A stretch of 32,000 bases of DNA from Moraxella nasicaprae (lineage in GTDB: Bacteria; Pseudomonadota; Gammaproteobacteria; Pseudomonadales; Moraxellaceae): the NCBI RefSeq assembly GCF_025643275.1, contig NZ_CP089977.1, positions 420,001-452,000 on the forward strand, read 5' to 3'. Shown here piece by piece: positions 2,990-20,587 of this stretch (its first letter is position 1; each line of letters begins with the position of its first letter). The notes under the pieces are model-generated. The model was not told where the DNA came from. It ran no database searches and was given only the letters and a program-made list of their open reading frames with translations. The translations under genes and the position numbers were made by a program.

Positions 2990-4306
2990 TCAAAAACTTT
3001 TGCCTATCAAAGCAGTCAGACTCTCACCAATGGTATGAAATGACCCAAACGCCACAATCAAATCATCATCGCTACTTGCTTTAATCACCCCTTGTGTTGC
3101 CTGTGCTAGATTGTCATAGGTAATGATACATTCTGGCTCTATTTCTTTGTTTAAGTAATCAAGCAAACACGGCAAGCTCATCGCTCGCTGATGGTCAATG
3201 GCGGCAATGTGCCACATCGCCTGAGGCAATGCTTGCTCATCAATGGCTTGACGCACCTGCTTAATGACCGACGGCACATCTTTATCGCCCAGCATTGAAA
3301 ATAGGAAAAACAGATTGGCATTAGGTTTATTGGTTTGATATTCTTTCCAATATCTTGTTAGTTGTTCTAATAAAAAAATGATGCCAGCCTCATTATGCCC
3401 CACATCAAAAATCCATTGGCGATTTTCTAAGACCCTTTTGTCAAATCTTCCTGCCAACTGCACCTGTTGTAATCCTGTCTTGATGGCATTCACGGAGATA
3501 TTTAGCGAACTTGCCAGCACAGCACTCACGGCATTGGCGGCATTTTTTAAAGACAGATTCGGCTTAGGTAGTGATGCGGTGATGGCAGATAAGCCATAAG
3601 TCCAATTCTCTAAATTTTCTTGATAGTCATAATGCACGCCAAGCTGACAAACCTTGGCATCTAAGGATTTGGCTTGCTCATAAACACTTGCCGGCATTTG
3701 ATATTCCCCCAAAATCACGGGAATATCCGCTCTCATGATACCTGCTTTTTCTCGTCCAATATCATCAAGATTATCGCCCAACCAATCCACATGGTCAATG
3801 CCGATATTGGTAATGACCGCCAAATCAGGGTCAATGATGTTCACAACATCAAGTCGTCCACCCAACCCAATTTCTAGCACCCAAACATCACAATTTGCTT
3901 GTAAAAATAACCAAAAAGCCGCCAAAGTTGTCATTTCAAAGAATGACAGGCTCACTCCCTTGTTCAGCCTTGCCTGTTCTATCACTTCAAATGCTTTGAT
4001 AAGATTATCTTCACTTATCTCGACACCATCAATGCGTACTCGCTCAGTGAATGACACCAGATGTGGCGATTGATATAGGGCGGTTTTTAGCCCTGATGCT
4101 TGGCAAATTTGAGCAATGGTCGCTGTGGTAGAACCTTTACCATTAGTACCCGCTACTGTAAACACATAGGGGCATTTGCCCTGCCAAGCAGATTTTAACA
4201 GCCCAAGTTCATCAGCCACAGGCAACACTCTATCTAGCCCCATGTCAATGGCAGACACATGAATACTGCCCATATATTCTAGCCACTGGCTTAGATTTTT
4301 TTTCAT
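2990..4306 (-). CDS. folC: Bifunctional folylpolyglutamate synthase / dihydrofolate synthase
   Basis: It has the Mur-ligase P-loop VAGTNGKGST, plus EIGLGGRLD and ITNIGIDH motifs. It lies downstream of accD, in the conserved order. The start is taken at MKKNLSQWLEY (ATG at 4306). Confidence 0.9.
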   Translation of the reverse strand: MKKNLSQWLEYMGSIHVSAIDMGLDRVLPVADELGLLKSAWQGKCPYVFTVAGTNGKGSTTATIAQICQASGLKTALYQSPHLVSFTERVRIDGVEISEDNLIKAFEVIEQARLNKGVSLSFFEMTTLAAFWLFLQANCDVWVLEIGLGGRLDVVNIIDPDLAVITNIGIDHVDWLGDNLDDIGREKAGIMRADIPVILGEYQMPASVYEQAKSLDAKVCQLGVHYDYQENLENWTYGLSAITASLPKPNLSLKNAANAVSAVLASSLNISVNAIKTGLQQVQLAGRFDKRVLENRQWIFDVGHNEAGIIFLLEQLTRYWKEYQTNKPNANLFFLFSMLGDKDVPSVIKQVRQAIDEQALPQAMWHIAAIDHQRAMSLPCLLDYLNKEIEPECIITYDNLAQATQGVIKASSDDDLIVAFGSFHTIGESLTALIGKSF

Positions 4307-4387
4307 AGTCAATCCTAGCTTTCTACAACAACAAACACCCAAAACCAACGAATTGGCTTTGGGTGGGTTCATATTCCAATGTAATGT

Positions 4388-5281
4388 TTAAGCAGCGTTT
4401 GCTTTGGTTAATTTTGCCAAAATACGATGCGTGGTGTCAATCAGCTGATGACGATGCACCACCATATCCACCGTACCTTTTTCTAACAAAAATTCTGCTC
4501 GTTGAAATGGCTCATCAAGCACTTCACGCACCGTTTGCTCAATCACTCGCTTACCTGCAAAGCCAATCATCGCACGAGGTTCAGCAATGTGTACATCGCC
4601 CAGCATGGCAAGGCTTGCGGTCACACCACCATAGACAGGATTAGTGAGAATTACAACATAAGGCACACCTGCCAAACGAAGTCGTTCAATGGCTGCTGAG
4701 GTACGAGCCATCTGCATCAAAGACAGTAAGCCCTCCTGCATTCTAGCACCGCCAGAAGCAGCAAAACACACCAAAGGTTTACGCTCAGCAAGGGCTTTTT
4801 CGGCGGCCTGCACAAAACGGTCGCCCACCACCGAACCCATCGAACCGCCCATAAAGCGAAAATCAAAGGCACAAGCGATGATGTCTAAATTTTTCAGCTT
4901 ACCGCTCATCACCACCAAGCCCTCACTCTCACCCGTCTTTCTTTGGGCTTCCAGCATTCGCTCTGGGTATGGCTTGCTATCAACAAATTGTAGCGGGTTG
5001 CCAGCATTGAACTCTTGCCCCAGCTCTTTATCCACGCTATCCAAAAACCACTCCAAGCGTTTGCGAGCAGTCATGGGCAGGTGGTGGTCGCACTCTGGGC
5101 AAACATTTTGGTTCAAAATCAATGCCGTATTGGTTGTCATTGCATGACACTCAGGGCATTCGGTTGATGGTTCGGTGGCAACCGCTGATAAGGTTGGCAC
5201 GGTACTTTGCTTAATGCCTGGCACGCTACGATTTAGCCAAATGGTCGGCTCTGTGCTGGCAATGTCGGCTTGATTTGACAT
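4388..5281 (-). CDS. accD: Acetyl-CoA carboxylase carboxyltransferase beta subunit
   Basis: It has an N-terminal Cys4 zinc finger (CPECHA...CPECDHH) and the carboxyltransferase core (FMGGSMGSVVGDRF, ASGGARMQEG). The start is taken at MSNQADI. Confidence 0.9.
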   Translation of the reverse strand: MSNQADIASTEPTIWLNRSVPGIKQSTVPTLSAVATEPSTECPECHAMTTNTALILNQNVCPECDHHLPMTARKRLEWFLDSVDKELGQEFNAGNPLQFVDSKPYPERMLEAQRKTGESEGLVVMSGKLKNLDIIACAFDFRFMGGSMGSVVGDRFVQAAEKALAERKPLVCFAASGGARMQEGLLSLMQMARTSAAIERLRLAGVPYVVILTNPVYGGVTASLAMLGDVHIAEPRAMIGFAGKRVIEQTVREVLDEPFQRAEFLLEKGTVDMVVHRHQLIDTTHRILAKLTKANAA

Positions 5282-5376
5282 AAAGAATCCTATTTTGTGC
5301 AATTTTGCAATTTGACATAGTTTACACTTGTATTATTTATTTGGCAAATAAATTTTATGGCAAGTGTTTACATTTA

Positions 5377-6195
5377 TCATCGCTCATCAATCGCAGCTCG
5401 TAGCTCGTCCATTTTTGCCAAGATATTTGCTTTCGCCTGTTCGATTTTTGCCAAATCATCGCCCACATCAGCAAAGTGTCTGACAAGCTCACTCCCCACA
5501 ATCACCCCATCGGCAAACTTGGCAACCGCCTTTGCACTCTCGCCATCACGAATGCCAAACCCAACACAAATCGGCAAGTCGGTATCCGCCTTAATCGCTT
5601 GTACTTGGCGGGCGACTTCGTCAGTGTCCAGTGCCTTTGAGCCTGTAACGCCCTTAACCGACACATAATAAATAAAGCCCGAACCGTGTTTTAGCACCGC
5701 TTTTCTACGCTCGCTTTGGGTGGTGGGGGCAAGTAGGAAAATTTGGTTAATCTCTTTATCAGCGAGTTTGGCGGATACACTTTCATCAGTCTCATTGGGC
5801 GGTAAATCCACCAACAGTAAGCCGTCCACGCCATTTGCCTCACACAGATTTAAAAAATCATCATAGCCGATAATCTCAACTGGATTAAGATAGCCCATTA
5901 AAAGCACTGGCGTGGTGGTGTTCGTCTTACGAAACTGCCCCACCATTTGCACGGCTTGGCGTGTAGAAGTGCCATTTGTCAATGCTCGCTCGCCAGCCAA
6001 TGAAATGACAGAGCCGTCCGCCATTGGGTCGCTAAATGGCAAGCCAATCTCAATGATGTCCGCTCCGTGTGCCACCAAATCGTGCATCAAATCCACCGTA
6101 ATAGCAGGATTTGGGTCGCCTGCCATAATGTAGGGGATTAGGGCTTTTTTGTTTTGCTGTTTTAAAGTCGCAAAAGTTTCTTGAATTCGGGTCAT
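5377..6195 (-). CDS. trpA: Tryptophan synthase alpha chain
   Basis: The sequence MTRIQETFATLKQQNKKALIPYIMAGDP...IEIGLPFSDPMADG...GFIYYVSVKGVTG...VGFGI is classic TrpA. A GGAGAG RBS lies 8 nt upstream of the ATG at 6195. Confidence 0.92.
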   Translation of the reverse strand: MTRIQETFATLKQQNKKALIPYIMAGDPNPAITVDLMHDLVAHGADIIEIGLPFSDPMADGSVISLAGERALTNGTSTRQAVQMVGQFRKTNTTTPVLLMGYLNPVEIIGYDDFLNLCEANGVDGLLLVDLPPNETDESVSAKLADKEINQIFLLAPTTQSERRKAVLKHGSGFIYYVSVKGVTGSKALDTDEVARQVQAIKADTDLPICVGFGIRDGESAKAVAKFADGVIVGSELVRHFADVGDDLAKIEQAKANILAKMDELRAAIDER

Positions 6196-6219
6196 TTTAA
6201 GCACTCTCCAATCATTAAA

Positions 6220-6966
6220 TCATATTTTTATTGACATAATTTTTCTGTATAGCTCATCAAAGGCTTTAATATTTTCTGGGCTTTCTGAAAGGTTTCGCAT
6301 ATACGAGTCTACATCTTCATACTTGATACTCAAAAACTCATCAAAAAATGCCTTACCACGCCTTATGTTTGTGTTTTCAGGTACATAAATATTGCCTTTC
6401 ATCTTCTTATTGTTGAAGAAAAATAAAATCGGTTCAATTTTAGCGTTTGGGAACTCACGTACCAAATAGGCGTAAGTTTTGATGAATTTACGGTTAATAT
6501 CAACAAATTTTCCCGTGTTGTGGTCGTCATTATACTTTACTTCAAGGTAGTAAATAACGCCTGTTTGCTTGTTTTGAAAAAGAATATCAATATCGTGCTT
6601 GATTGTTGAAAGATTGGTATCATTATCGTTTGCAATGGCGTATAACAATTTGGGAAATTCTTCATCAAGATTTATGGTGTTGTACTGGCAAGAACTTATG
6701 AAATTGTTGATTCTTGTGTCATTTTGGGTAGATAACTGAAAACTATTGCTTTTCTTACTGCTATAATCTTCCAAAATGGTATAACGCCCATCATTCTGGA
6801 TTAAATTTTTCAAGAAAAAAATAGCAAAACAATCAAGATTGATGTTAAATTTTTTCATTATATCAAAAAAGCCATAATCTTGATTTTTATTTTTCTGAAT
6901 GTATAATTTTCTTTTATTTAAACAACAGCTTAAAGAAAAATTAAATGCTTTATCTATATCTTGCAT
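6220..6966 (-). CDS. Hypothetical protein, probable type II restriction-endonuclease-like PD-(D/E)XK nuclease
   Basis: This is a 248-aa ORF in a very AT-rich island. A candidate catalytic core is HDIDILFQNKQTGVIYYLEVKYNDDHNTGK, which fits D-x13-E-V-K. It lies downstream of a methyltransferase remnant. I recognise no closer family. Confidence 0.45.
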   Translation of the reverse strand: MQDIDKAFNFSLSCCLNKRKLYIQKNKNQDYGFFDIMKKFNINLDCFAIFFLKNLIQNDGRYTILEDYSSKKSNSFQLSTQNDTRINNFISSCQYNTINLDEEFPKLLYAIANDNDTNLSTIKHDIDILFQNKQTGVIYYLEVKYNDDHNTGKFVDINRKFIKTYAYLVREFPNAKIEPILFFFNNKKMKGNIYVPENTNIRRGKAFFDEFLSIKYEDVDSYMRNLSESPENIKAFDELYRKIMSIKI

Positions 6967-6976
6967 AGATTACTCC

Positions 6977-7702
6977 TTATCCAAATATTAAATTATCTAT
7001 ATCTTTTGTTTTAATTGTACTATCATATAGCATTTGAATTTCATCATAATTGATAAACCTAAACCTTTCTTTATTATTTTTGTGAATTTCCAAATTTATT
7101 GTTTTTTCAAATTTTTTTCGATGTTTTTCTGGAGCAATGATAAAAAATTCTGAGCGAAAATTCTGTAACTGCAAGCAACGATTAAAAGCCCCATTTAATG
7201 TTCCAATACTATCCACCACTTCAAATATTTTTTGAGGAAATACCAGCCCTTTTTTGTTTAACCAAATAACATCAATTCTTGTTGCCTCCTCCAAAATGTT
7301 GTCATATGAAAATTTTGGCAGAGTTTGTAATGATGTTAAATCCTTTAGTTTAAGATTGTCCCGATAAAATGATGAAGGATCAGCTGTGTAAGTATGGTAA
7401 CCATTGAAATTACCTAACTCAATACATAGACCTTCAATAAAAGAATGCAATCTTATATCTTCTTGAAGTTTAGGCTTTTGCTCCACAATGTAGTCTTGCA
7501 AAGCATAAATACCCACACCTATTTTTTTAAACAATTTACGCTCACCAACTTCACGATATAAGACACCTCGAATGCCAGCTTGCCATTGAATGGAACTTTT
7601 GATACTGGGATAATACTTTTCAATATTATTGTAGATAATATCAAGTGTTGCAACACCCCCATTATCTTCCATTATCCTGAGAATTGCCTGAATTTTTGTC
7701 AT
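6977..7702 (-). CDS. Hypothetical protein with an N-terminal winged-helix (Mrr_N/HARE-HTH-like) domain and a C-terminal PD-(D/E)XK-like domain
   Basis: The N-terminus (MTKIQAILRIMEDNGGVATLDIIYNNIEKYY...WQAGIRGVLYREVGERKLFKKIGVGIYAL) has the pattern of restriction-enzyme wHTH sensor domains. The C-terminus (HSFIEGLCIELGNFNGY...RIDVIWLNKKGLVFPQKIFEVVDS) resembles D...E-V-x-S nuclease cores. Its ATG lies 19 nt after the point where the methylase remnant frame ends. Confidence 0.45.
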   Translation of the reverse strand: MTKIQAILRIMEDNGGVATLDIIYNNIEKYYPSIKSSIQWQAGIRGVLYREVGERKLFKKIGVGIYALQDYIVEQKPKLQEDIRLHSFIEGLCIELGNFNGYHTYTADPSSFYRDNLKLKDLTSLQTLPKFSYDNILEEATRIDVIWLNKKGLVFPQKIFEVVDSIGTLNGAFNRCLQLQNFRSEFFIIAPEKHRKKFEKTINLEIHKNNKERFRFINYDEIQMLYDSTIKTKDIDNLIFG

Positions 7703-7721
7703 AGGTAACTTGCCACAAATT

Positions 7722-8023
7722 TCACATTAAAAATAAAGAACCAATAACCCAAATTGAACCTGTTGGCCTTAAAACCCTTTTGCATTCTGTTAGCCATTCT
7801 TCACAAAAAGAGTCATACTGTTTAAAATCATTAAACTTGTCCCATTCATCTTCTACGCCTGAAAATTTTTCGCCATTAGTGCGTAGTAATTCCCACTCCG
7901 TTTGCATAAAATACGGTGGGTCAGCAAAGATTAAATCAATGCTATTACTGGGTATTTTTTTAAATTTTCTATACAATCCCCTTTTAGGATTGTATTAAGA
8001 AATTGATTTATATTGTCTTTCAT
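7722..8023 (-). pseudogene. 5' remnant of a beta-class (CcrM/M.HinfI-like) DNA methyltransferase, both frameshifted and truncated
   Basis: The track ORF (7722..7976) reads ...IPSNSIDLIFADPPYFMQTE...DEWDKFNDF..YDSFCEEWL.ECKRVLRPTGSIWVIGS and then stops after about 84 aa. Hand translation from the ATG at 8023 in the neighbouring frame gives MKDNINQFLNTILKGDCIENLKK. That joins the DPPY frame only if the A7 run (T7 on the plus strand, 7955-7961) were A8. No catalytic or AdoMet-binding C-terminal two-thirds is present. Confidence 0.75.
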
Positions 8024-8313
8024 AATTCTTGCTCATCTTTAATGATAAACTTTTTCAAAGTTTCATCAAAATAAATCCGCTCATCAAAAATATCGTATTT
8101 TTCCCAGTCAATATATTGATGTTCGGGTTTGGTTCTTAAATCTTGCAAATAAGCCACCTCCGCAAGACAATCATCAATATCCTCTTGCGTTAATGGCTCT
8201 TTGGCATAATGAGAAAACCGCCCAAATAAAGTATCATTTTCTACCACTTTTTGAATGGTGTCATTATTATTTGCAATGCCATACAAATCTTCAATGGAAT
8301 TAAATTTTTCCAT
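8020..8313 (-). CDS. Small, strongly acidic hypothetical protein (97 aa)
   Basis: The ORF is rich in D and E (EDIDDCLAEVAYLQDL, DWEKYDIFDERIYFDE). Its ATG shares one base with the trpB stop (TAATG at 8315-8311). Its TGA overlaps the methylase-remnant ATG (ATGA at 8023-8020). Confidence 0.6.
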   Translation of the reverse strand: MEKFNSIEDLYGIANNNDTIQKVVENDTLFGRFSHYAKEPLTQEDIDDCLAEVAYLQDLRTKPEHQYIDWEKYDIFDERIYFDETLKKFIIKDEQEL

Positions 8314-9515
8314 TATAATTCAATCCCATCCACTTTCATCACCGTATGCAAATCTTTATCGCCACGCCCTGATAAATTGATGACAATGGATTTGTCCTGC
8401 CCCAATGTCTTGGCAAGTTTCAATCCATAAGCCACAGCGTGCGAGCTTTCTAGGGCTGGGATAATGCCCTCCGTCTTGGTCAAAATACGAAACGCCGCCA
8501 ATGCCTCATCATCGTTAATCACGCCATATTCCACACGCCCCATATCCTTTAAAAAGCTGTGTTCAGGCCCAACCCCAGGGTAGTCAAGCCCCGCAGAAAT
8601 GCTATGCGTTTCAATAACTTGCCCTTCATCGTCTGCCATCAGATAGGTGCGATTGCCGTGCAGGACACCCACACGCCCTGCATTTAGGGGGGCTGAATGC
8701 TTGCCTGTCTCAATCCCATATCCGCCAGCTTCTACGCCATAGAGCTTGACGGTTTCGTCATTTAAAAACTCATAAAACAGCCCCATTGCATTTGAGCCAC
8801 CGCCCACGCACGCCACACAGGCATCGGGCAATTTGTCTTCAAATTGCAAATGTTGCAGACGAGCCTCACGCCCAATAATCGCCTGAAAATCACGCACAAG
8901 TAGCGGATAAGGGTGTGGACCTGCCACCGTGCCGATGACATAATAGGTGCTATCCACATTGGTAACCCAGTCTCGCATCGCTTCGTTCATTGCGTCTTTC
9001 AATGTCCGAGAACCGCTCGTAACAGGCACAACAGTCGCCCCAAGTAGTCTCATACGATAGACATTCATCTTTTGGCGTTCCACATCGTCCGCCCCCATAT
9101 AGACCACGCATTCTAAGCCCAATCTAGCAGCGATGGTTGCCGTTGCCACGCCGTGCTGACCTGCCCCTGTTTCGGCGATAATGCGTTTTTTGCCGACAAG
9201 TTTCGCCAAAAGTGCCTGCCCAATGGTATTATTGACCTTATGAGCCCCTGTGTGGTTTAAATCCTCTCGTTTTAGATAAATCTTAGCCCCACCAGTTTCT
9301 GCTGTTAAGCGTTTGGCAAAATACAGCGGTGTGGGACGGCCGACATAGTTTATCAAATCGTCATTATATTCTTTCCAAAATTCAGGGTTATTTTTAACGC
9401 TTAAATAAATGCGTTCTAATTCTTCAAGTGCCGTCATCAAAGTTTCAGAAACAAATCGTCCGCCGTGAATGCCAAAATGACCTGTGGGGTTTGGGTATTG
9501 GGTAAAGTCTGTCAT
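8313..9515 (-). CDS. trpB: Tryptophan synthase beta chain
   Basis: The sequence [15 protein letters not shown]...[16 protein letters not shown] (PLP lysine)...GGGSNAMG...[11 protein letters not shown] is unambiguous TrpB. Confidence 0.95.
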
Positions 9516-9550
9516 ATAAATTGCCTTTTTAATTGAATTTGTTTAAAAAC

Positions 9551-9754
9551 TCATTGATTTTTTTCAAAATAACTTTGTGCCTGAGAACTTAATTCATCTA
9601 GCGTTAAATCTTCAAATAATTTTTCTTGCCATTTGGTATAATCAAAACTTTCACGGCGAATTAAAGCAATAAATCGCTCTGCCTGAACTTCACCTAATGC
9701 TTTAATTAGGCTTTGCATACCTGTTAGGCGAATTTCACTATCACTAATCATCAT
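9551..9754 (-). CDS. Putative antitoxin partner of the upstream PIN-domain protein
   Basis: This is a 67-aa ORF overlapping the PIN gene stop by ATGA (9754-9751). The ERFIALIRRESFDYTKWQ motif matches small partners that I recall being encoded after this PIN subfamily. Confidence 0.55.
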   Translation of the reverse strand: MMISDSEIRLTGMQSLIKALGEVQAERFIALIRRESFDYTKWQEKLFEDLTLDELSSQAQSYFEKNQ

Positions 9755-10182
9755 TTAATTTCCTGTATAAAATCAATTGGGTTTAATGCAATAATATCAT
9801 TATTTGCTTGCATTTTATTCAACAATTTATTATCAGTTGATAAAAAGTATTCTGCTTGTGCATTGACAGCACAGGCAATATGCAAAGCATCTTTAATTTT
9901 GATATTTTGCTCCATTAAGATTTTGGCATAAGTTTTTATTTCTTGATTTTCACCAATCAAAACAGTGGCTAATTTTTGCCATTTTTCTATGGCAAATCTA
10001 CGCTCAAAAAATGGGTTTTGGCTATTTTCATAAGCCAAAATATAAGACCAAACCAAATCCAATTCACCATTTTTTATTAACTCTTGAATATGTAATTTGC
10101 TTTCGGTTTCTAATCGCACTCTGATATTATCTTGATTGTCAAAAGGGCGATTAAACATACAGTTATCCAAATAGACAAGCAT
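9751..10182 (-). CDS. PIN-domain ribonuclease toxin (VapC-like)
   Basis: The sequence MLVYLDNCMFNRPFDNQ...SYILAYEN...DALHIACAV...FLSTDNKL places the four acidic PIN residues at the expected spacing (D6, E~52, D~98, D~116). Confidence 0.7.
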   Translation of the reverse strand: MLVYLDNCMFNRPFDNQDNIRVRLETESKLHIQELIKNGELDLVWSYILAYENSQNPFFERRFAIEKWQKLATVLIGENQEIKTYAKILMEQNIKIKDALHIACAVNAQAEYFLSTDNKLLNKMQANNDIIALNPIDFIQEIK

Positions 10183-10184
10183 AA

Positions 10185-10937
10185 TTACATATCCTTAACC
10201 ACCGTCAATCCTGCAAAAGTTTGGGCGACAGGCATGACTTCTAGGCGGTTGATGTTAATATGGGGTGGCAAGTTAATAACATAATGCACCATATCGGCAA
10301 TGTCTTCGGGGCGAATATAGTCCACCTTTTCATAGGTTTTATTAACTTTTTCATCATCGCCTTTAAAACGGACATTGCTAAATTCTGTACCGCCACAAAG
10401 ACCGGGTTCTATATTGGTAACTCTGACCTTTTTACCAATCAAATCGGCTCGCAAATTTAAACTAAACTGCTTAACAAATGCCTTTGTCGCCCCATAGACA
10501 TTCGCCCCAAAATAGGGATAATTCCCTGCCGTTGAGCCAATGTTAATAATTAAGCCATTGTTATTTTTTACCATATAAGGCAAAATCAGATTGGTGATAT
10601 TCACAAGTCCTAAAATATTGGTATTTATCATTTGTTCCCAATCATTCATATCCGCTTTGTCGGCACTTTCTAACCCCAATGCCAATCCTGCATTATTGAT
10701 AAGGACATCAATATTGGTCAAAATACCATTATCCAAACCGTCAATGGCGGATTGTGTGGCGGTCAAATCAGAAATATCAAAACATAAGGGAATAAACTTC
10801 TCGCCCAATTCTGCTTGAATGTCGCTAAGTTTATCGCCTCGTCTACCTGTGCCAATGACAGTATGATTTTCGCCAATTAAGCGTTTGGCGATTGCCAAAC
10901 CAAAACCTGATGTTACGCCTGTGATAAGAATGTTCAT
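10185..10937 (-). CDS. Short-chain dehydrogenase/reductase (YdfG-like NADP-dependent)
   Basis: It has the TGVTSGFG Rossmann motif, NNAG, and the catalytic Y-x3-K in YGATKAF. The start is taken at MNILITG (ATG at 10937). Confidence 0.85.
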   Translation of the reverse strand: MNILITGVTSGFGLAIAKRLIGENHTVIGTGRRGDKLSDIQAELGEKFIPLCFDISDLTATQSAIDGLDNGILTNIDVLINNAGLALGLESADKADMNDWEQMINTNILGLVNITNLILPYMVKNNNGLIINIGSTAGNYPYFGANVYGATKAFVKQFSLNLRADLIGKKVRVTNIEPGLCGGTEFSNVRFKGDDEKVNKTYEKVDYIRPEDIADMVHYVINLPPHININRLEVMPVAQTFAGLTVVKDM

Positions 10938-10958
10938 AAGTTTTACCCCAAAAGTCAA

Positions 10959-11741
10959 TCAAAAAATAAATTTATAAACCAAAGTTGCCATCATAAGACC
11001 AACCGTCACAACCAAAACTTTTTTGATGATTGCTCCATCACTTTTAATAGCATGCAAGCTCCCAAAATGATTACCCAACAAATTAGCAATAATCATTGGA
11101 ATACCAATGGCAAAAGCCATTTTCCCTGCGATTGCAAATGCAACAAATGCTCCGATGTTTGATGAGAAATTAAAAATCTTTGAGGTGGCTGACGCTTGTA
11201 ATAATGATAAGGAGTTGATTAGATATAAAGCAATAATAAAAATACTACCAGTTCCTGGACCAAAAAATCCATCATAAAATCCAACCAATAAACAAGTGAC
11301 AAAAACCGCCAAAACAGATTTTTTTATTTCTCCTTGATGGTCTTTTACAATTTTACCCTTAAACAAGGTGGCCATCAATCCGATGGGCAAAAAGGCGAAA
11401 ATAATATATTCAATCACATGGCTTGGAAACATCAATATGGCTTTTGCACCAATAAAAGCTCCTATCAATGCAGCAACAATCCCAATGGGTACAATCTTCC
11501 AGATGATGGATTTTGCCTTGATAAAATTCTTAATGGCTGCCACCGTACCGATGGTACTGACCAGTTTTTCTTGACCAAGTGCCAGCTGAGGAGGTAAGCC
11601 CACCAACATAAATACAGGCACCAAAATCAGCCCAGCACCACCAGCAACGGCATCAATATAACCCGCCACAAACGAAGCAATGACCAATAAAAACAAACCA
11701 ATATAAAAATACTGTGCAATAATACTGCCGTCAATAAACAT
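10959..11741 (-). CDS. TSUP-family (TauE/SafE) anion exporter membrane protein
   Basis: This is a polytopic hydrophobic protein. It contains DAVAGGAGLILVP and FFGPGTGS, the two halves typical of TSUP transporters. The start is taken at MFIDGSII. Confidence 0.75.
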   Translation of the reverse strand: MFIDGSIIAQYFYIGLFLLVIASFVAGYIDAVAGGAGLILVPVFMLVGLPPQLALGQEKLVSTIGTVAAIKNFIKAKSIIWKIVPIGIVAALIGAFIGAKAILMFPSHVIEYIIFAFLPIGLMATLFKGKIVKDHQGEIKKSVLAVFVTCLLVGFYDGFFGPGTGSIFIIALYLINSLSLLQASATSKIFNFSSNIGAFVAFAIAGKMAFAIGIPMIIANLLGNHFGSLHAIKSDGAIIKKVLVVTVGLMMATLVYKFIF

Positions 11742-11970
11742 TGTCTTATATCCATATAGCAAAATTGAGCGAAAATAAATTGTGAAAAAACAGTTTATTA
11801 TCGCCAACGCCAACGGACAGTATTAAAAGATGAGATATGAAAAAGAATGCCATCATTGCGATGGGCAATAAGAAAGGAACAAGCCGAATAAAGTGCTGCT
11901 AACAAAGCGATGACTCCCAGTCTTGTTATGACCATGCAACAGCTGTGCATTTGGTCATTGATTGACACCC

Positions 11971-12000
11971 ATTGTAGGCTGAAACCGACGGTCTTGTCAA
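11971..12000 (-). promoter_or_regulatory. Candidate sigma70 promoter overlapping the trpF stop codon
   Basis: On the minus strand there is TTGACA (12000-11995), an 18-nt spacer, then TACAAT (11976-11971). It precedes a roughly 230-nt leader before the TSUP gene. Confidence 0.35.
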
Positions 12001-12662
12001 TGGTTTTTTATACCCTGAATAAATCCTGCCATTTTTTCCTGACATTTCACCCCCTTTTCCTTTTCAATCCCACCACTGACATCAACACCACTAATCTTTG
12101 CCATTAACTGTGCATTATTTACAATATCGCCAATATTTTCAGGGGTTAAGCCTCCTGCCAGATAAATGGGCAAAGGCGAATTGTCAGGGATTTTTGCCCA
12201 GTCAAAGGAATGCCCTGTCCCACCATAAGCCGTCTCGCTAAAAGTATCCAAAATCACGCCACTTGCCCCATACGCTTGCAATTCATTGATTTTGTTTAAA
12301 ATATCATTGGCGGTGTCGTCATTTTTGACACGAATTGCCTTGATGTAGCGTTTATTTACTGCCTTTGCTAAGGCTTGGCACTCGCTGGGCGTTTCATCGC
12401 CGTGAAATTGGATAATATCAAAATGGACTTCTTTTGCCAAGTCCAAAAGTTCGTCCTGTCCCATATTGACCACAAGGGCGACAATGGTGGTAAAGGCTGG
12501 CACAGATTTGACCAGCTCGCCAGCAAGTTGCATCGTTACCGCTCGTGGGCTTTTTGGATAAAACACAAGTCCAATAGCGTTCACGCCCAAATCACAAGCG
12601 GTGTTGATGTCGTGGGCGGTGGTTAATCCACAGAATTTAACGGCAAGAGATTGACTCATCAT
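11997..12662 (-). CDS. trpF: Phosphoribosylanthranilate isomerase
   Basis: The sequence VKFCGLT...AIGLVFYPKSPR...QFHGDE...LAGGLTPENI is classic TrpF. The start is taken at MMSQS (12662), 12 nt after the upstream stop. Confidence 0.9.
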   Translation of the reverse strand: MMSQSLAVKFCGLTTAHDINTACDLGVNAIGLVFYPKSPRAVTMQLAGELVKSVPAFTTIVALVVNMGQDELLDLAKEVHFDIIQFHGDETPSECQALAKAVNKRYIKAIRVKNDDTANDILNKINELQAYGASGVILDTFSETAYGGTGHSFDWAKIPDNSPLPIYLAGGLTPENIGDIVNNAQLMAKISGVDVSGGIEKEKGVKCQEKMAGFIQGIKNH

Positions 12663-12673
12663 AGATACTCGCT

Positions 12674-13303
12674 TTATTGGTCTAAAATTGGCATCTGACA
12701 CACGCCAGCACCCTGCTGATGCACCTCTATCTGTACATCAGACAATGCAAATAAACGCTCAACTTGTTCTGCTGCGTTATCCGCTGCCATCGTCAAAATA
12801 TTACCTGCACAAGCCTTACTTAGCACCTCTTGCTTGGCATCTTGTTGCACTTTGGTAAATAGTTGATGGTCATGCGACATCATGCCAAACAACCCAGTTT
12901 GCCAATCATAGATTTGTATGTCGTCCAAAAATACTTCAAACACCTGTGGCGGTGGTAGCTTGACCATAATTTTGGGCGATGTGCCTGTCTGTTTGGCGTG
13001 GTGTACACCGACATCATCGGCAGTGATTTTTGTCAAGTCCACACCCGCCAAGACTCGCCCTTTGATGACAAATAGTCCTTTTTGTTCATCTTGCCACAAT
13101 TTTTGCCAACTGCCCTGTTTTTGAGCAGTAACAATACTATCCACCGAATACGCCACTGTCTGCAAGCGAGATAATGATTGGATTTGGCTAACGGTTGCAG
13201 CTTGGGTGATGGTATTGGTATCATGATTCATTGTTGTCTTATAATAGTACACGCCCAAAACAACAATCGCAATCAACACAAAAAGTTTTAGCAAATTTTT
13301 CAT
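12674..13303 (-). CDS. DUF4230-like membrane-anchored protein
   Basis: It has an N-terminal TM segment (LLKLFVLIAIVVLGVYYY). The pattern GRVLAGVDLTKI...VKLPPPQVFEV matches my recollection of DUF4230. Confidence 0.55.
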   Translation of the reverse strand: MKNLLKLFVLIAIVVLGVYYYKTTMNHDTNTITQAATVSQIQSLSRLQTVAYSVDSIVTAQKQGSWQKLWQDEQKGLFVIKGRVLAGVDLTKITADDVGVHHAKQTGTSPKIMVKLPPPQVFEVFLDDIQIYDWQTGLFGMMSHDHQLFTKVQQDAKQEVLSKACAGNILTMAADNAAEQVERLFALSDVQIEVHQQGAGVCQMPILDQ

Positions 13304-13464
13304 CGATGACCTGTTTTATACATCACAATGTCTTTGGCGGTATAAAATACCACAAAAACACAGGTAAATGTGCTAAATTATGAAAAAATTCATTGTACAT
13401 TATGTCAAATTTACCGTAAGATATGACGATAACTCATTATCTACTCAAATAAAAAAGGTTCGTT

Positions 13465-15186
13465 ATGAAAGCCAGTCAGTTTTTATTTTCAACACTCAAA
13501 GAAACGCCAAGCGATGCGGACATCGTATCTAGTCAGTTGATGGTGCGTGCAGGTCTGATTCGCAAACTTGCCTCAGGACTGTATGTGTGGATGCCAATGG
13601 GGCTTAGAGTGTTACGCAAGGTCGAAAATATCGTACGAGAAGAGATGGATAAAATCGGCTCACAAGAACTGCTCATGACCGTCACTCAACCTGGCGAACT
13701 ATGGCACGAATCTGGTCGCTGGGATAATTATGGAGCGGAGCTGCTGCGTTTTAAAGACCGTCATAGCCGTGATTTTGTCCTTGGGCCAACACACGAAGAA
13801 GTCATTACCGACATCGCTCGCAACGAACTAAAAAGCTACAAACAGCTGCCTGTAACTTTTTATCAAATCCAAACCAAATTCCGTGATGAGATTCGCCCAC
13901 GCTTTGGCGTGATGCGTGCCAGAGAATTCACCATGAAAGATGCGTATTCTTTTCATATTGATACAGACTCTTTGGCAGTCACTTATCAAGACATGTATGA
14001 TGCTTACAGCCGTATTTTTAGCCGTCTTGGACTAAACTTCCGTGCTGTACAAGCGGATACTGGCTCGATTGGCGGTTTTGCCTCACACGAATTTCATGTC
14101 TTGGCTGATAGCGGTGAAGATGATATTGCTTTTTCAAGCGATTCAGACTTTGCTGCCAATGTGGAGCTTGCCGAAGCCATCACTACTGGCACTCGCCCTG
14201 CCCCGAGTCAAGCTCGCACCAATGTATCAACACCTAATATGCCAACTTGCGAACAAGTAGCACAACATCTAAACATCGACCTAAGCCAGACTGTCAAAAC
14301 TTTGATTGTCAAAGGGGCTTATAGCGAAGAAACACCAGAAATGCCAAAACTTGTGGCATTGGTACTTCGTGGTGATCATGAGCTAAACGAAATCAAGGCT
14401 GAAAAAATTGTAGCCATCGCCAAGCCGTTTACCATGGCAAGTGAAGAAGAAATCAAAGAAGCAGGTTTAATCAAAGGCTACATCAGTGTTGATTTGGATG
14501 TGCCTGTCTATGTTGATCGTGCCGCAGCCATCTTAGCAGATTTTGTGTGCGGAGCAAACATTGAAAATGAACACACCACAGGCATGAACTGGGAGCGAGA
14601 TGCTACCATCACCGAAGTGGTGGATATTCGTAATGTTGTCGATGGCGACCCATCGCCAGATGGTCAGGGTGTTATTTCCATTAAGCGTGGTATCGAAGTT
14701 GGGCATATTTTCCAACTTGGCGACAAATACTCTGATGCACTGGGCTGCAAAGTATTGGGTAAAGAAGGCAAGCCTGTGACTTTGATGATGGGTTGCTATG
14801 GTATCGGTGTTAGCCGTATCATCGCCGCCGCCATCGAGCAAAATCATGATGACAATGGCATCATCTGGGCAGAACCAGAAAATCCTGCTGACAGTATTGC
14901 ACCATTTTATGTTGCTATTGTGCCAATGCGTTCCAAAGATGGTCAAGCCGAACAAAAGGCTGATGAACTCTACCAAACCCTAAAAGCACGCAACATCAAT
15001 GTACTGCTTGACGATAGAGACGAAAGACCAGGTGTTAAATTTGCCGACCTTGAACTGATTGGCGTGCCTCATCGCATCGTGGTATCAGAAAGAAATCTTG
15101 CTGAGGGCAAATATGAATATGTCCACCGTGCCACAGGCGAGAAACAAATGCTAAGCCTTAATGAACTACTGGCAAAATTTGCCTAA
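13465..15186 (+). CDS. proS: Proline--tRNA ligase (bacterial type with editing insertion)
   Basis: The sequence [40 protein letters not shown]...[25 protein letters not shown]...GCYGIGVSR matches ProRS, and the 573-aa length fits. Confidence 0.95.
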
Positions 15187-16192: not shown

Positions 16193-16301
16193 TGGATTTT
16201 CCTGTTTGAATGAAAAGAATTAGGCGTATTTTAACGGTTTTGGATTTGGGAGGGAATGAGTAAAAATGGGAAGGTGGTTTTCGGATTTGGAAATATGTCA
16301 T

Positions 16302-16330
16302 TTGAAAAAGCTGTCAAAAAAATCTATAAT
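16302..16330 (+). promoter_or_regulatory. Candidate sigma70 promoter of the helicase/DprA-like cassette
   Basis: There is TTGAAA (16302-16307), a 17-nt spacer, then TATAAT (16325-16330). An AAGGAA RBS lies at 16347-16352, ahead of the ATG at 16362. Confidence 0.5.
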
Positions 16331-16361
16331 ATCCAAAATCTCAATCAAGGAATAACACATT

Positions 16362-18440
16362 ATGCACTTTAATCCAAGTCGCGCTCTTGAATTATTAAGA
16401 CAAGGTTCAAGTAATCCAAATGCTAAATTTCGTGATGGACAAGAGGAGGCTATTACTCATCTTGTTACCAGCACACAAAGACTGCTGGTAGTGCAAAAAA
16501 CAGGCTGGGGTAAAAGTTTTGTTTATTTTATTGCCACACAATTATTACGAGAATCAGGTGCTGGCATTACGCTACTTATCTCGCCATTATTAGCGTTAAT
16601 GCGTAACCAAATTGCGGCAGCAAAAAGAATGGGCTTAAAGGCGGTAAGTATCAATTCGGAAAATACCGATGATTGGAAGCAAATAGAACAAGAGATTATT
16701 TTAGGACAAGTGGATATCGTTCTAATCTCACCTGAACGATTGGCAAATCAGAACTTTATCAATAATGTTTTGAGTCAAATTGCTGGAAATATTGGTTTAT
16801 TGGTTATTGATGAAGCACACTGTATTTCAGATTGGGGACACGATTTTCGTCCAGATTATCGTTTAATTGAACGAATTATTAAAAATTTACCACCCAATCT
16901 GCGTGTTTTGGCAACTACAGCAACCGCCAATCAGCGTGTAATGGATGACCTTATTGCCATTCTAGGACCCAATATTGCGGTTTCAAGAGGAGATTTAAAT
17001 CGCCCATCATTAACCTTACAAACGATTAAATTGCCCAGCCAAATTGAACGTTTGGCGTGGCTGGCTGAACAACTGTCTCATTTGCAAGGTAGCGGTATTA
17101 TTTATACTTTAACAGTGAGAGATGCCAATCAAGTTGCTGATTGGCTTAAATTGCAAGGTTTTGATGTGGAAGCCTATACAGGCGAAAGTGGTGATAAAAG
17201 GATTGAATTAGAAGATAAACTACTTAATAATCAAGTCAAAGCATTGGTTGCCACAACTGCTTTGGGAATGGGATATGATAAGCCTGATTTGGGATTTGTC
17301 ATTCATTATCAAATGCCAAATTCTGTTGTTGCTTATTATCAACAAGTTGGACGAGCTGGGCGAGCATTATCGAACGCTTATGGCGTTTTATTGAGCGGTA
17401 TAGAAGATGATGAAATCAGTGCGTTTTTTATTGACAGTGCTTTCCCAAAACCAAATGAAGTGAATCAAATTTTAAATGCATTAAAACAATCGCCAAATGG
17501 ATTATCATCAAATGAATTGCAAGACAACATCAATTTAAGTCAAGGCAGAATCAGCAAAGCATTAAAAGTCTTATCATTAGAATCGCCAGCACCTTTGGTT
17601 AAGCAAGACACAAAATGGCAATTAACTTCCGCTACATTATCTACTGATTTTTGGCAAAGGGTTAATCGCCTCACAGAATTAAGAAAAAATGAACATCAGC
17701 AAATGAAAAATTATGTTGATTTACCATTTGGTCAGCATATGGCATTTTTAGTTAATGCACTTGATGGTGATACACAACAAATTATGCCACCCCAATTACC
17801 ACCATTACCAACTTTAATTCACCCAACTTTCGTTCAACAAGCCAGTGAATTTTTGCACAGAAGTAATGTGATTATTGAACCAAGAAAGAAATGGGCAACA
17901 GGTGGTTCAACACAATTTTCGCAAAAAGGTAATATCAATCCAAATTTTCAAGCAGAGGAAGGACGTGCATTATCCATTTGGGGCGATGCTGGCTGGGGCA
18001 AATTGGTCAAACAAGGAAAGTATCAAGATAATCATTTTGCAGATGAATTGGTGAATGCCTGTTGTGAAATGATTGAGCGTTGGCAACCCAATCCAAAACC
18101 AACTTGGGTAACTTGCGTGCCGTCTTTGCGACACCCTGATTTGGTGCCTGATTTTGCTAGGCGGTTGGCAATGAAATTGGGGTTGCCATTTATGCCAATT
18201 ATCCAAAAAATCAAAGAAACTGAGCCACAAAAAATGATGCAAAATAGCCATATGCAAGCCCATAATTTAGATGGCGTATTTCAGTTGAGTGATAATCCAT
18301 TGTCAGAACCCGTTTTATTGATTGATGATATGGTGGATTCTCGTTGGACTTTAACCATATGTAGCTATCTTTTAAAATTTAATGGTAGTGGTGCAGTCTT
18401 TCCACTTGTACTTTCTCAAACCAGCAATCAAGGTGAATAA
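16362..18440 (+). CDS. RecQ-family superfamily-2 helicase fused to a C-terminal ComF/phosphoribosyltransferase-like domain (PsyrT/RqlH-like putative toxin)
   Basis: It has Walker A QKTGWGKS, the RecQ-type DEAH box VIDEAHCISDWGHDFRPDY, TATA, ATTALGMGYDKPD and motif VI YYQQVGRAGR. The C-terminal roughly 115 aa (WVTCVPSLRHPDLVPDFARRLA...PVLLIDDMVDSRWTL) have a PRTase/ComF-like layout. Confidence 0.85.
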   Translation: MHFNPSRALELLRQGSSNPNAKFRDGQEEAITHLVTSTQRLLVVQKTGWGKSFVYFIATQLLRESGAGITLLISPLLALMRNQIAAAKRMGLKAVSINSENTDDWKQIEQEIILGQVDIVLISPERLANQNFINNVLSQIAGNIGLLVIDEAHCISDWGHDFRPDYRLIERIIKNLPPNLRVLATTATANQRVMDDLIAILGPNIAVSRGDLNRPSLTLQTIKLPSQIERLAWLAEQLSHLQGSGIIYTLTVRDANQVADWLKLQGFDVEAYTGESGDKRIELEDKLLNNQVKALVATTALGMGYDKPDLGFVIHYQMPNSVVAYYQQVGRAGRALSNAYGVLLSGIEDDEISAFFIDSAFPKPNEVNQILNALKQSPNGLSSNELQDNINLSQGRISKALKVLSLESPAPLVKQDTKWQLTSATLSTDFWQRVNRLTELRKNEHQQMKNYVDLPFGQHMAFLVNALDGDTQQIMPPQLPPLPTLIHPTFVQQASEFLHRSNVIIEPRKKWATGGSTQFSQKGNINPNFQAEEGRALSIWGDAGWGKLVKQGKYQDNHFADELVNACCEMIERWQPNPKPTWVTCVPSLRHPDLVPDFARRLAMKLGLPFMPIIQKIKETEPQKMMQNSHMQAHNLDGVFQLSDNPLSEPVLLIDDMVDSRWTLTICSYLLKFNGSGAVFPLVLSQTSNQGE

Positions 18441-18443
18441 GAA

Positions 18444-19682: not shown

Positions 19683-19696
19683 TGGGAAAAACAAAA

Positions 19697-20587
19697 ATGA
19701 ACCTCAACACCCTCCGTCTTTTCGTTGCCGTTATCCAGCACGGCAGTTTGTCCAAAGCCTCCGAACGACTCAATGTGCCGATTGCGACCATTAGCCGTCA
19801 AATTGCCGATTTGGAAAAAGAGCTTAATATTCAACTCTTTGACCGCCAAAAATCAGGCGTTAAACCCACAATGGCAGGGCAACGCCTGTATGAACAGGTG
19901 CATTTGTCCATTGAACAGCTTGCCAATGCCAAAGAAGTACTCTTTGAAGAGCAAGGCAATTTAAAGGGTAAATTACGCCTGTCGGCAAGCCCTGCCTGCG
20001 AGCCTGTTTTGGCGTGGATAGCTGATTTTCAGGCAGCCTACCCACAGGTACAGGTGCATTGCACGCTGACCGACCGTCTTTTGGATTTGTCGGCAGACGG
20101 CATTGATGTGGCGTTTCGGATTGGGCAGTTACACGGCGAACAATTTATCGCCAAAAAAGTGGGGCAAATCGGCAGCAAATGGGTGGCACACCCTGATTTA
20201 TTGACACGATTGGGTACACCCAACACCATCAAGGATTTGAAAAATTTCCCCATTGCCGCTTGGGCAAAAAATGAAGCAAGCGTCATCACGCTAGGGGTTG
20301 GCAGACAAGCGGTGGAAATTCCCTATCTTTTTGCCAGCAATGACAGCTATGCCATTGAATATATGGCAAAACAGGGCAAAGCAGTGGCTCTGCTTGCCGA
20401 CAGCACGGTGGATAGACTCGTGGCAGAAAATGGCTTGGTGGAGGTCTTAGGCGAGACAGAAAACCCCAAATTTGATTTGACGATGATTTATGCCGCCCAT
20501 CGTTATCCGTCTAGCATTGTACGGGCGTTTGTGGGGTTTGTGCTTGATAGGGTAAATAATGAGACTTTGGACGATTCAGCCATTTGA
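19697..20587 (+). CDS. LysR-family transcriptional regulator
   Basis: The sequence MNLNTLRLFVAVIQHGSLSKASERLNVPIATISRQIADLEKELNIQLFDR has the LysR HTH signature. I prefer the start at 19697 over the ATG at 19682, which overlaps the upstream stop. Confidence 0.85.
   Translation: MNLNTLRLFVAVIQHGSLSKASERLNVPIATISRQIADLEKELNIQLFDRQKSGVKPTMAGQRLYEQVHLSIEQLANAKEVLFEEQGNLKGKLRLSASPACEPVLAWIADFQAAYPQVQVHCTLTDRLLDLSADGIDVAFRIGQLHGEQFIAKKVGQIGSKWVAHPDLLTRLGTPNTIKDLKNFPIAAWAKNEASVITLGVGRQAVEIPYLFASNDSYAIEYMAKQGKAVALLADSTVDRLVAENGLVEVLGETENPKFDLTMIYAAHRYPSSIVRAFVGFVLDRVNNETLDDSAI

Follow-up and report, generated by a model that had tools for sequence, protein, structure and literature searches.

The 32-kb stretch of Moraxella nasicaprae DNA analysed here (the window, to which coordinates refer unless another locus is named) contains an AT-rich island between trpB and trpA, the genes for the beta and alpha subunits of tryptophan synthase. 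The island consists of four open reading frames (ORFs), all on the minus strand like the trp genes: orf97, the stub of a DNA methyltransferase (methylase) gene, orf241 and orf248. It is one allele of a hypervariable, operon-internal slot; the restriction cassette that it contains is wrecked, having been overtaken by orf241, a nuclease gene that travels. Our overall explanation, which combines an exchangeable trp slot, a cargo made of three layers and a replacement by a module bearing orf241, is in our judgement probably right.

The HinfI-type cassette and the replacement module

An intact version of the cassette is present at the same slot in other Moraxella. In L041, and with complete context in L123/L124, the order is orf97-M-R-trpA, M being a methylase gene of 361 amino acids (aa) and R an endonuclease gene of 263-272 aa. 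In the window, orf97 (8020-8313) is followed by the methylase stub (7722-8023), orf241 (6977-7702), orf248 (6220-6966, a chimeric gene of the HinfI endonuclease family) and a spacer of 24 nt (6196-6219), which constitutes the right edge of the slot, carries the ribosome binding site (RBS) of trpA and is also found 3′ of the intact R gene in L041. Comparison with L041 by blastn gave 98% identity over 8242-7735 and 95% over 6783-6170, the middle being unrelated. The breakpoints are at 7735/7734 and 6784/6783, and where the intact cassette has 1022 bp (510-1531 of L041), the window has a module of 951 bp (7734-6784, GC content 0.289). The module is made of 32 nt (13 nt from the end of the stub frame and the 19-nt gap that follows), orf241, a 10-nt gap and 61 new endonuclease codons. 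Methylase codons ∼98-361 and endonuclease codons 1 to ∼85 are lost from the cassette, the left break being just past a conserved TGSIWVIGS and the right one just ahead of DGRYxILEDY. The module is thus best read as a later replacement, orf241 being no part of the original cassette.

The stub-orf241-orf248 unit is also present at another chromosomal site (L042-L044). Between the window and L044, segment 7862-6783 is 97-100% identical, but the 5′ part of the methylase is only 57-83% and the 3′ part of the endonuclease 72-93% identical. Since the module is so much closer than the cassette sequences on either side of it (57-93%), it must have entered, as a copy, two HinfI cassettes that had diverged from each other, and its right edge is 6783/6784 in both. 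The L044 unit is bracketed by a direct repeat of 146 bp (2742-2887 and 4989-5120 of that locus, 98-99% identical), comprising the 3′ end of a lipoprotein gene and the terminator hairpin of that gene.

The methylase stub matches positions 14-91 of 350 of the NCBIfam CcrM model, with 107.6 bits for a cutoff of 830, and only positions 1-54 of 221 of PF01555. What remains is codons 1 to ∼97, ending in LFLM-stop; homology to intact M stops after IWVIGS, at residue ∼97. Catalytic motif IV (IDLIFADPPYF) is kept, in a second frame, and no single open frame contains the motif I for binding of S-adenosylmethionine (DPFxGxGTT), the target-recognition region or the C-terminal RAMA domain. The ATG at 8023 opens a frame of merely 30 codons and the DPPY part is in another frame through loss of 1 nt in a poly-A run (7961-7955), which is A7 in the window and in L025, A8 in L033 (at ∼4980) and AAAAAGAA in the intact allele L041. 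Homopolymeric A tracts of this kind slip easily, and the frameshift is without consequence, as the gene is truncated anyway; the L044 copy has an additional frameshift at the 5′ end of its methylase. The stub is to be regarded as a dead pseudogene, truncated and frameshifted, of a beta-class N6-adenine DNA methyltransferase of the M.HinfI/CcrM type, which cannot work because its target-recognition and cofactor-binding parts are lost. No other methylase was found in the 32-kb window.

The endonuclease has fared differently. The orf248 product is 100% identical to the M. nasicaprae protein named ‘HinfI family type II restriction enzyme’ by NCBI, scores 298.8 bits (cutoff 175) over positions 49-264 of 264 of NCBIfam NF045831 (restrict_HinfI; PF09520) and matches PADLOC REase_II PDLC03491 with an E value of 5e-111. 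Codons ∼62-248 are those of the old R gene; in an alignment with 13 family members, D125, E142 and K144 are in invariant columns, and about 11 nearly invariant residues of the N-terminal motif HFxPxxYRxFGGxLQSMNIQFGNF are missing. The first 61 codons are derived from the module, have a GC content of 0.219 and show a faint likeness to the N-terminus of the family; a donor for this segment, sought among all fetched loci, was not found. The enzyme is probably inactive or changed in function. Identification of orf241 and orf248 rests on NCBIfam, PADLOC and precomputed Pfam assignments: our own Pfam scan gave no match for either one (the PF09520 model is narrower), and PDB sequence searches with both proteins and with the family profile returned nothing useful. 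For pairs with indels (orf248 against L044/L042; trpB and trpA against L033), dN/dS was disregarded as invalid; the valid pairs have very few substitutions.

GANTC, the HinfI-type site, occurs 47 times in the window versus 83 ± 9 times in shuffled sequences (observed/expected 0.58). We rejected this depletion as proof of live HinfI restriction: GTNAC is equally low, and GGNCC and CCNGG are ten-fold lower. These last two sites, with 7 and 8 occurrences where about 70 are expected from dinucleotide composition, merit mention for themselves: their scarcity, far beyond that of GANTC, suggests a strong past or present restriction pressure on them.

A first-pass annotation, made from the letters of the window alone, had described an accessory island of foreign composition with four co-oriented and tightly packed ORFs, and in this it was right. 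GC content is 0.307 in the island (6205-8312) against 0.48 in the trp genes (0.482 in trpB, 0.483 in trpA) and 0.416 in the whole window, and GC at third codon positions is 0.24-0.33 in island genes and 0.47-0.49 in trp genes. The trpB stop overlaps the orf97 start in TAATG at base 8313, the orf97 stop overlaps the methylase ATG in ATGA at 8023, 19 nt (7721-7703) separate the stub from orf241 and 10 nt (6976-6967) orf241 from orf248, and the trpA RBS is GGAGAG (6209-6204) in the 24-nt spacer. Judged from its homologues (MTRI...), trpA starts at ATG 6195, and the GTG at 6204 given in the ORF listing is wrong. The same annotation saw a restriction-type cassette in the island: the type is borne out by orf248 (restrict_HinfI, E 3e-89) and by the CcrM/M.HinfI-type stub, but a working cassette is not, with a methylase that is dead and an endonuclease that lost its N-terminal motif. 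Its inclusion of the 241-aa gene in the original cassette has to be given up.

The absence of a terminator inside the island, noted at the time, was found again by a simple scan of the minus strand, on which the nearest terminator-like sites are at 11109 and 5590. Together with co-orientation and the stop/start overlaps, it makes transcription of the island by read-through from an upstream or trp promoter the most likely arrangement. What speaks against read-through is that promoter-like hexamer pairs, several of them on the gene strand, exist in the AT-rich DNA (e.g. 8339-8312); promoter-like sites number 28 versus 21 ± 3.9 expected, an enrichment that is not significant and settles nothing. 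Rfam found no RNA family over 4000-13500, and a leader, attenuator or riboswitch was sought inside the island without result. An origin as insertion sequence, integron or integrative element was rejected: there are neither direct nor inverted repeats bracketing the island, no integrase or transposase among the scanned cargo proteins, no tRNA and no Rfam family.

The trpB-trpA junction in Moraxellaceae

To survey the slot, we scanned for TrpA in one genome per species; this gave 24 loci, of which 20, all from Moraxellaceae, span the junction. The order SDR-trpB-[gap]-trpA-accD-folC is kept in these 20 species representatives, and the trpA-accD-folC synteny in 22 loci. The homology arms are well conserved: TrpB of the window (8313-9515; PF00291, E 2e-43) is 81-97% identical to the proteins of the 20 loci and forms the left arm, while the right arm is trpA (5377-6195; PF00290, E 1e-84), with accD and folC next to it. 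Two Psychrobacter have a gap of 66-68 bp and one Moraxella metagenome-assembled genome has a gap of 217 bp; in the other 17 it measures 392-2643 bp. Its GC content is 0.26-0.40, against 0.44-0.54 for the trp genes that flank it, and AT-rich content, differing from species to species, is found in 18 of the 20.

An illustration of this diversity is provided by the cargo itself. In M. oblonga the slot is filled with NADAR and Macro genes, which follow an orf97 of 98% identity. M. lacunata, M. caprae and sp. Pampa carry an antitoxin-like gene together with a PIN gene, M. bovis and M. bovoculi an HNH nuclease, M. oculi the A and B genes of a PD-T4-4 defence system (E 6e-135 and 6e-35, respectively) and Moraxella sp. 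TY6 a PIN_8 protein of 477 aa; the remaining species have membrane and unknown proteins. About 30 cargo genes are credible, and all of them are on the trp strand, ORFs of the opposite strand being short shadows of these genes. Cargo begins 0-30 nt past the trpB stop, frequently with an overlap of stop and start codons, and ends 15-30 nt ahead of trpA; at the slot edges, conservation is confined to trpB itself and the purine-rich RBS of trpA. Cargo is devoid of terminators and would thus most likely be transcribed by read-through from upstream. The trpB-trpA spacer of Moraxella is, as these comparisons indicate, an exchangeable cargo slot within a trpF..trpB-trpA-accD-folC string. The literature yielded no description of it.

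These data bear on what had been said of the junction at first. Comparison across relatives, proposed then, did reveal alternative cargo, with trpB and trpA adjacent in two Psychrobacter only, and the arrangement is as unusual as it was said to be. That trpB and trpA are normally adjacent and translationally coupled needs to be divided: adjacency appears ancestral in the family Moraxellaceae but coupling by overlap does not, given the 66-68 nt between the genes in Psychrobacter, the nearest outgroup. That the island would be stabilised by where it lies is at odds with the high cargo turnover and with the exchange of whole islands between species.

This exchange can be followed along the sequence. 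Compared per 100 bp with L033 (a 15-kb assembly from another Moraxella), the window has 73-88% identity in trpB and 66-80% in trpA, but 96-100% from about 8257 to 6159. With L123/L124, which represent a third lineage, parts of the island are 88-100% and the flanks 55-90% identical; with M. oblonga, trpB and orf97 are 92% and trpA-accD 77% identical. Because the island is 96-100% identical between hosts whose trp flanks share no more than 66-88% identity, we conclude that cassettes have, by this evidence, been swapped between species at the slot. Whole cassettes would be exchanged by homologous recombination (allelic replacement) in the conserved arms that trpB and trpA provide, and the route would probably be natural transformation.

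The acidic protein of orf97 (97 aa, isoelectric point 4.3) has no match in Pfam, NCBIfam, PADLOC or PHROG, and only 9 homologues, all Moraxella-like, among 5.8 billion proteins. If one stop is read through, 79 residues of the L124 homologue can be aligned to the antitoxin-like protein of 85 aa whose gene accompanies the PIN gene in M. lacunata (L004; E 5e-9), while for orf97 of the window only a central KEPLTxEDIDD motif aligns with the antitoxin-like protein of L003 (E 0.001). We propose that orf97 is a Moraxella-restricted relative or remnant of the antitoxin-like gene that accompanies the PIN gene at the same trpB-proximal position in other species. It is of an older layer than the restriction cassette: it precedes unrelated cargo in M. 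oblonga, and it is missing from the cassette copies at other chromosomal sites (L042, L044). In L124 (4840-5000), the frame upstream of the orf97 homologue runs, via one stop codon, into the antitoxin-like N-terminus of other species, and according to this frame orf97 may have arisen from such an antitoxin-like gene.

Some other observations concern the slot and its surroundings. NADAR genes, at times with a Macro gene, are the most recurrent cargo (L002, L003, L009, L013, L016 and L018, L016 being one Psychrobacter), and they are fragmented in L003 and L009; the corresponding enzymes reverse ADP-ribosylation, which suggests a counter-toxin role. In the window, a second AT-rich insert (9551-10182, minus strand, GC content 0.304) lies between the SDR gene and trpB, where a 67-aa ORF overlaps an ORF of 143 aa with a PIN domain, likely a toxin-antitoxin pair. 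The SDR-trpB spacer of relatives contains homologues of this pair in L013, PIN fragments in L033, about 700 bp of other content in many species and nothing in L123/L124. The trpF-SDR spacer is variable too: a TauE exporter gene occupies it in the window (10959-11813), TauD and TauE genes in L124, a 121-aa ORF in L033 and nothing in L123 (the region compared in L123 and L124 being 2000-2900). The whole trpF..trpA string appears tolerant of inserts at every junction. Farther away, a stretch of lower GC content (16200-19700, 0.32-0.40) encodes a 692-aa DEAD/ResIII helicase and then a 412-aa DprA/SLOG-like protein, which may be another accessory or defence-type gene pair.

The orf241 family and the origin of the module

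The only gene of the island that looks both intact and conserved is orf241, predicted to encode a stand-alone nuclease of the PD-(D/E)XK type. An AlphaFold2 model of its product (pLDDT 77) has an N-terminal winged helix (residues 1-68, HARE-HTH-like) and an alpha/beta core (82-240). The NmeDI_C domain (PF27126) is precomputed on the identical protein of L025 and on all 120 homologues listed, and HARE-HTH (PF05066) on some homologues; PADLOC REase_II PDLC03534 gives a weak match (E 9e-6) between residues 132-233 and positions 230-331 of 351 of the model. Eight residues are invariant (H86, E90, E95, D144, E161, D164, H194 and K197) and fit a predicted nuclease with a restriction-endonuclease fold. 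By Foldseek, the winged helix comes near that of DpnI with a probability of 0.9. The gene is 98% identical across three contexts, with a dN/dS of ∼0.2-0.3, a value calculated from small counts.

The family is large and widespread. There are 551 homologues in several phyla, the nearest ones outside Moraxella being 65% identical and coming from Treponema, Prevotellaceae and gut or rumen metagenomes, and an exhaustive profile search brought 523 clusters. Both halves of the protein are found in other combinations. The winged helix (residues 1-76, MTKVEAI...) is, nearly unchanged (E ∼1e-21), fused to HNH_2, HNH or NOV_C nucleases in P0302, P0321, P0330, P0335, P0338, P0342, P0348, P0353 and P0362, and the nuclease part recurs C-terminally in NmeDI-like proteins of 350-418 aa.

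The neighbours of orf241 homologues were surveyed in 80 metagenomic loci and in loci retrieved by exact protein, which gave 56 non-redundant upstream and 55 downstream neighbours. Methylases of the N6-methyladenine (m6A) type are upstream in 25 of the 56 cases, none of them demonstrably full length. Sixteen are Dam-type genes, all lacking DPPY and ending at about 57, 64, 67, 100, 106-109, 136-137 or 165 aa; the 9 others are of the beta class (77-320 aa), among them L107, which is ∼40 residues short at its C-terminus, and L117, in which the contig ends within the gene. Nine further upstream neighbours are TdeIII/HinfI-family endonucleases, some with internal deletions. Downstream, AlwI-family endonucleases (523-541 aa) predominate with 19 of 55, and two Dam-type genes lack their N-terminus. 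A composite in which an orf241 homologue lies between a Dam stub lacking DPPY and an AlwI-family endonuclease that seems intact is found in L026, L032, L046, L050, L058 and about 14 more loci. Most loci of the family have no other methylase within 3.5 kb, exceptions being L107, L118 and L083 (another beta-class methylase or fragment nearby), and solitary copies exist, e.g. between nadA and a GH32 gene.

On a neighbour-joining tree (no bootstrap), the types of context are interleaved and orf241 of the window falls outside the main beta-methylase clade, among copies from Dam/AlwI contexts. When copies from unrelated contexts are compared, DNA homology ends ∼5 nt from the ATG and ∼30 nt from the stop, and alleles devoid of orf241 exist (L041, L124). 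From this pattern, orf241 would move as an ORF-sized unit, which lands mostly at methylase/endonuclease junctions of m6A-type cassettes in several phyla. A phage or plasmid origin was rejected: there is no PHROG match and no relative in IMG/VR or INPHARED, and PLSDB holds only a 28% match on a Halobacterium megaplasmid.

We propose that the cargo of the window was laid down in three layers. The first would be orf97, remnant or relative of an antitoxin-like gene, and the second a HinfI-type (GANTC) Type II restriction-modification cassette such as is still intact at the slot in other Moraxella. The third would be the orf241 module, which, arriving as a single stretch, would have inactivated the methylase and probably the endonuclease as well; further decay of the stub would then have come with the A8 to A7 frameshift. 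As to the function of orf241, a reader domain shuffled over several nuclease folds, in a stand-alone protein that has no working methylase at its side, is the Type IV pattern, and for this reason a methyl-dependent nuclease is favoured. By analogy, then, orf241 may be a stand-alone modification-dependent (Type IV-like) nuclease incompatible with a resident adenine methylase, a tentative proposal to which we give somewhat less than an even chance. In such a situation only replacements that destroy the methylase would survive, as with Neisseria drg, and joint removal of the methylase body and the endonuclease start would avoid both lethal conflicts.

Several points weigh against this account. 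L033, L041 and L123/L124 are automatic assemblies of public reads, in which chimeric joins are possible. The classical K of (D/E)XK is not obvious in the orf241 family, the Foldseek matches are weak (best E 2e-3) and that to DpnI covers merely 53-67 residues. HARE-HTH domains have been argued to read cytosine, not adenine, marks (PMC11037411). The ∼19 composites of Dam stub and AlwI-family endonuclease, none of which has an intact methylase within 3.5 kb, are unexplained: an endonuclease without methylase should be lethal there, and if methylation comes from elsewhere, then the orf241 homologue in these loci cannot be Gm6ATC-dependent. Last, distant relatives (L107, L117, L118) adjoin beta-class methylases that are possibly functional, and orf248 may not be dead, as it is open in four independent sequences and differs from L033 by ∼7 synonymous and 10 non-synonymous substitutions.

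Another possibility, which we hold to be unlikely, is that orf241 is a homing-type selfish nuclease: it would cut intact cassettes near the M/R junction and be copied in by repair, joint deletion of the M body and R start being the only viable way of breaking an addictive pair. This would suit an ORF-sized unit that sits in unrelated contexts with homology ending at the ORF ends, contexts interleaved on the tree, and the loss of both methylase 3′ and endonuclease 5′ parts in the HinfI-type cases. A family that is absent from phage and plasmid collections must, moreover, move by recombination. The near-identity of the module (97-100%) in two HinfI cassettes otherwise 57-93% identical, where identity falls off 0-130 bp from the module and both comparisons place the right edge at 6783/6784, would also recall short co-conversion tracts, but this argument comes from a single pair of cassettes. 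Dam-type stubs that end anywhere between ∼57 and 165 aa fit poorly with one site of cleavage and insertion, copies are found between housekeeping genes as well (nadA and the GH32 gene), and shuffling of the winged helix onto HNH and NOV_C domains is the pattern of defence enzymes composed of a reader and a nuclease.

A broader form of the idea can be stated, and we rate its chances as low as those of homing: the orf241 family would be undescribed selfish genes that parasitise adenine-methylating Type II cassettes at the M/R junction in several phyla, taking the place of the methylase body, and if necessary also of the endonuclease start, in one step, with the leftover methylase promoter and 5′ stub driving their own expression. 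If this were true, a locus that methylates and cuts unmethylated DNA would become one that cuts methylated DNA, and the trpB-trpA slot would be a natural arena in which to see it allele by allele, intact in L041/L124 and taken over in the window, L033 and L025.

Live restriction seems to us quite improbable. It supposes that orf241, orf248 or both cut unmodified foreign DNA and that a GANTC (or other) methylase encoded elsewhere in the genome protects the host. The D125/E142/K144 core kept in a frame that stays open argues for it, as do the depletion of GANTC in the window, the origin of the NmeDI_C domain in a genuine Type II enzyme (PMC2095814), and the beta-class methylases beside some distant relatives of orf241; the 7 synonymous to 10 non-synonymous substitutions of orf248, against a neutral ratio of ∼1:4.6, are weak evidence of purifying selection. 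But the sole methylase of the island is dead and the window has no second one, orf248 misses ∼11 nearly invariant N-terminal residues, the depletion is unspecific (GTNAC, GGNCC and CCNGG share it) and most orf241 relatives are without an intact methylase within 3.5 kb.

Just as improbable is inert decay, i.e. a dead cassette and a dead hitch-hiker kept since deletions hitting trpB or trpA are selected against: a truncated and frameshifted methylase (with a further 5′ frameshift in L044), an endonuclease with a replaced N-terminus and the fragmented NADAR genes of L003 and L009 are in line with it, but orf241 is full length with every family-invariant residue, 98% identity over three contexts and a dN/dS of ∼0.2-0.3 (small counts), frames of 241 and 248 codons in AT-rich DNA (GC at third positions 0.24) are unlikely to last unselected, and cargo is readily removed or replaced at a slot of such high turnover.

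Comparison with known systems

If we return to the account favoured here, i.e. an exchangeable slot with a cassette taken over by orf241, each of its parts can be set beside a known system. In Burkholderia and Flavobacterium, too, genes foreign to the trp pathway are reported to lie between trpB and trpA, according to a passage of PMC2395257 which cites Xie et al. 2003. The likeness lies in the position of the inserts; the Moraxella slot, unlike a sporadic single insert, varies genus-wide. With chromosomal defence hotspots it has in common conserved core flanks and a variable, defence-enriched cargo (20 loci), and it differs in being inside a biosynthetic operon, between two subunit genes of one enzyme, with cargo that is all co-oriented and edges that have no integrase, tRNA or repeat. 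A defence or accessory hotspot can sit inside a biosynthetic operon, its cargo forced into the operon orientation and no dedicated mobility machinery being present; this is an unusual answer to the question of where new defence genes may land harmlessly and how they are expressed.

As for the cassette, its kinship with HinfI systems is seen in the order (M then R, abutting on one strand), in the membership of orf248 in the R family, in the first ∼90 methylase residues kept by the stub, DPPY included, and in the intact relatives at the same trp slot of other Moraxella. Here, in contrast, the methylase is truncated and frameshifted, the N-terminus of the endonuclease is foreign and a third gene lies between them. 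The 146-bp repeat around the L044 unit matches ‘insertion with long target duplication’, by which Furuta et al. 2010 (PMC2853133) characterised mobile restriction-modification units. The matched intact and taken-over alleles make it possible to test how cells replace an addictive methylase/endonuclease pair, and removal in one stretch is a concrete proposal for this.

Helbrecht et al. 2024 (PMC11037411) described small proteins in which a winged helix is fused to a nuclease as m6A-dependent Type IV enzymes, with Dam-dependent toxicity for the winged helix-HNH fusion and others, and saw frameshifted methylases adjoin their genes, one case being Moraxella ovis. Like them, orf241 is a small stand-alone combination of winged helix and nuclease, its reader is found on various folds and it usually has no intact methylase beside it. 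The likeness is one of architecture; the winged helix-NmeDI_C combination is not among the architectures of that study, nor does it describe genes lodged, in three types of cassette, at the M/R junction. With 523 clusters in several phyla, mostly beside truncated adenine methylases, the orf241 family is a candidate for a new family of modification-dependent restriction enzymes. Its nuclease domain (PF27126) is common to the C-terminal part of R.NmeDI of N. meningitidis, a Type II enzyme of 351 aa that cuts on both sides of RCCGGY and whose gene overlaps that of the cognate methylase (PMC2095814). At 241 aa, orf241 has a winged-helix N-terminus instead and no working methylase partner.

In Neisseria, drg is a low-GC nuclease gene that replaces dam and whose product cuts GmeATC (PMC4269198, PMC516771). 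It is the nearest precedent for orf241: in both, a low-GC, stand-alone nuclease gene occupies the place of an adenine methylase that is lost, and the host is a naturally competent Gram-negative bacterium. The two differ in that drg (NmeBII/Drg) replaces an orphan dam at the leuS/dam locus, not a part of a restriction-modification cassette. Drg is DpnI-like, with the nuclease first and the winged helix second, whereas in orf241 the winged helix precedes the NmeDI_C nuclease and methyl-dependence is a prediction. Streptococcus pneumoniae offers a last parallel: a cassette with a methyl-dependent nuclease (DpnI) and one with a methylase and endonuclease (DpnII) are alternative alleles of one site, exchanged by transformation via the flanks. 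The Moraxella slot would likewise hold methyl-dependent and methylase-plus-endonuclease alleles at one site, except that pneumococcal crossovers are in the outer flanks and leave no remnants, while here they are inside the M and R genes and left stubs. All the components are thus precedented, be it mobile restriction-modification units, defence hotspots, nucleases that replace a methylase or winged-helix Type IV enzymes; what is new is their combination, namely a slot that separates the two genes of tryptophan synthase and a nuclease family whose members lie in truncated methylase genes, in cassettes of three types.

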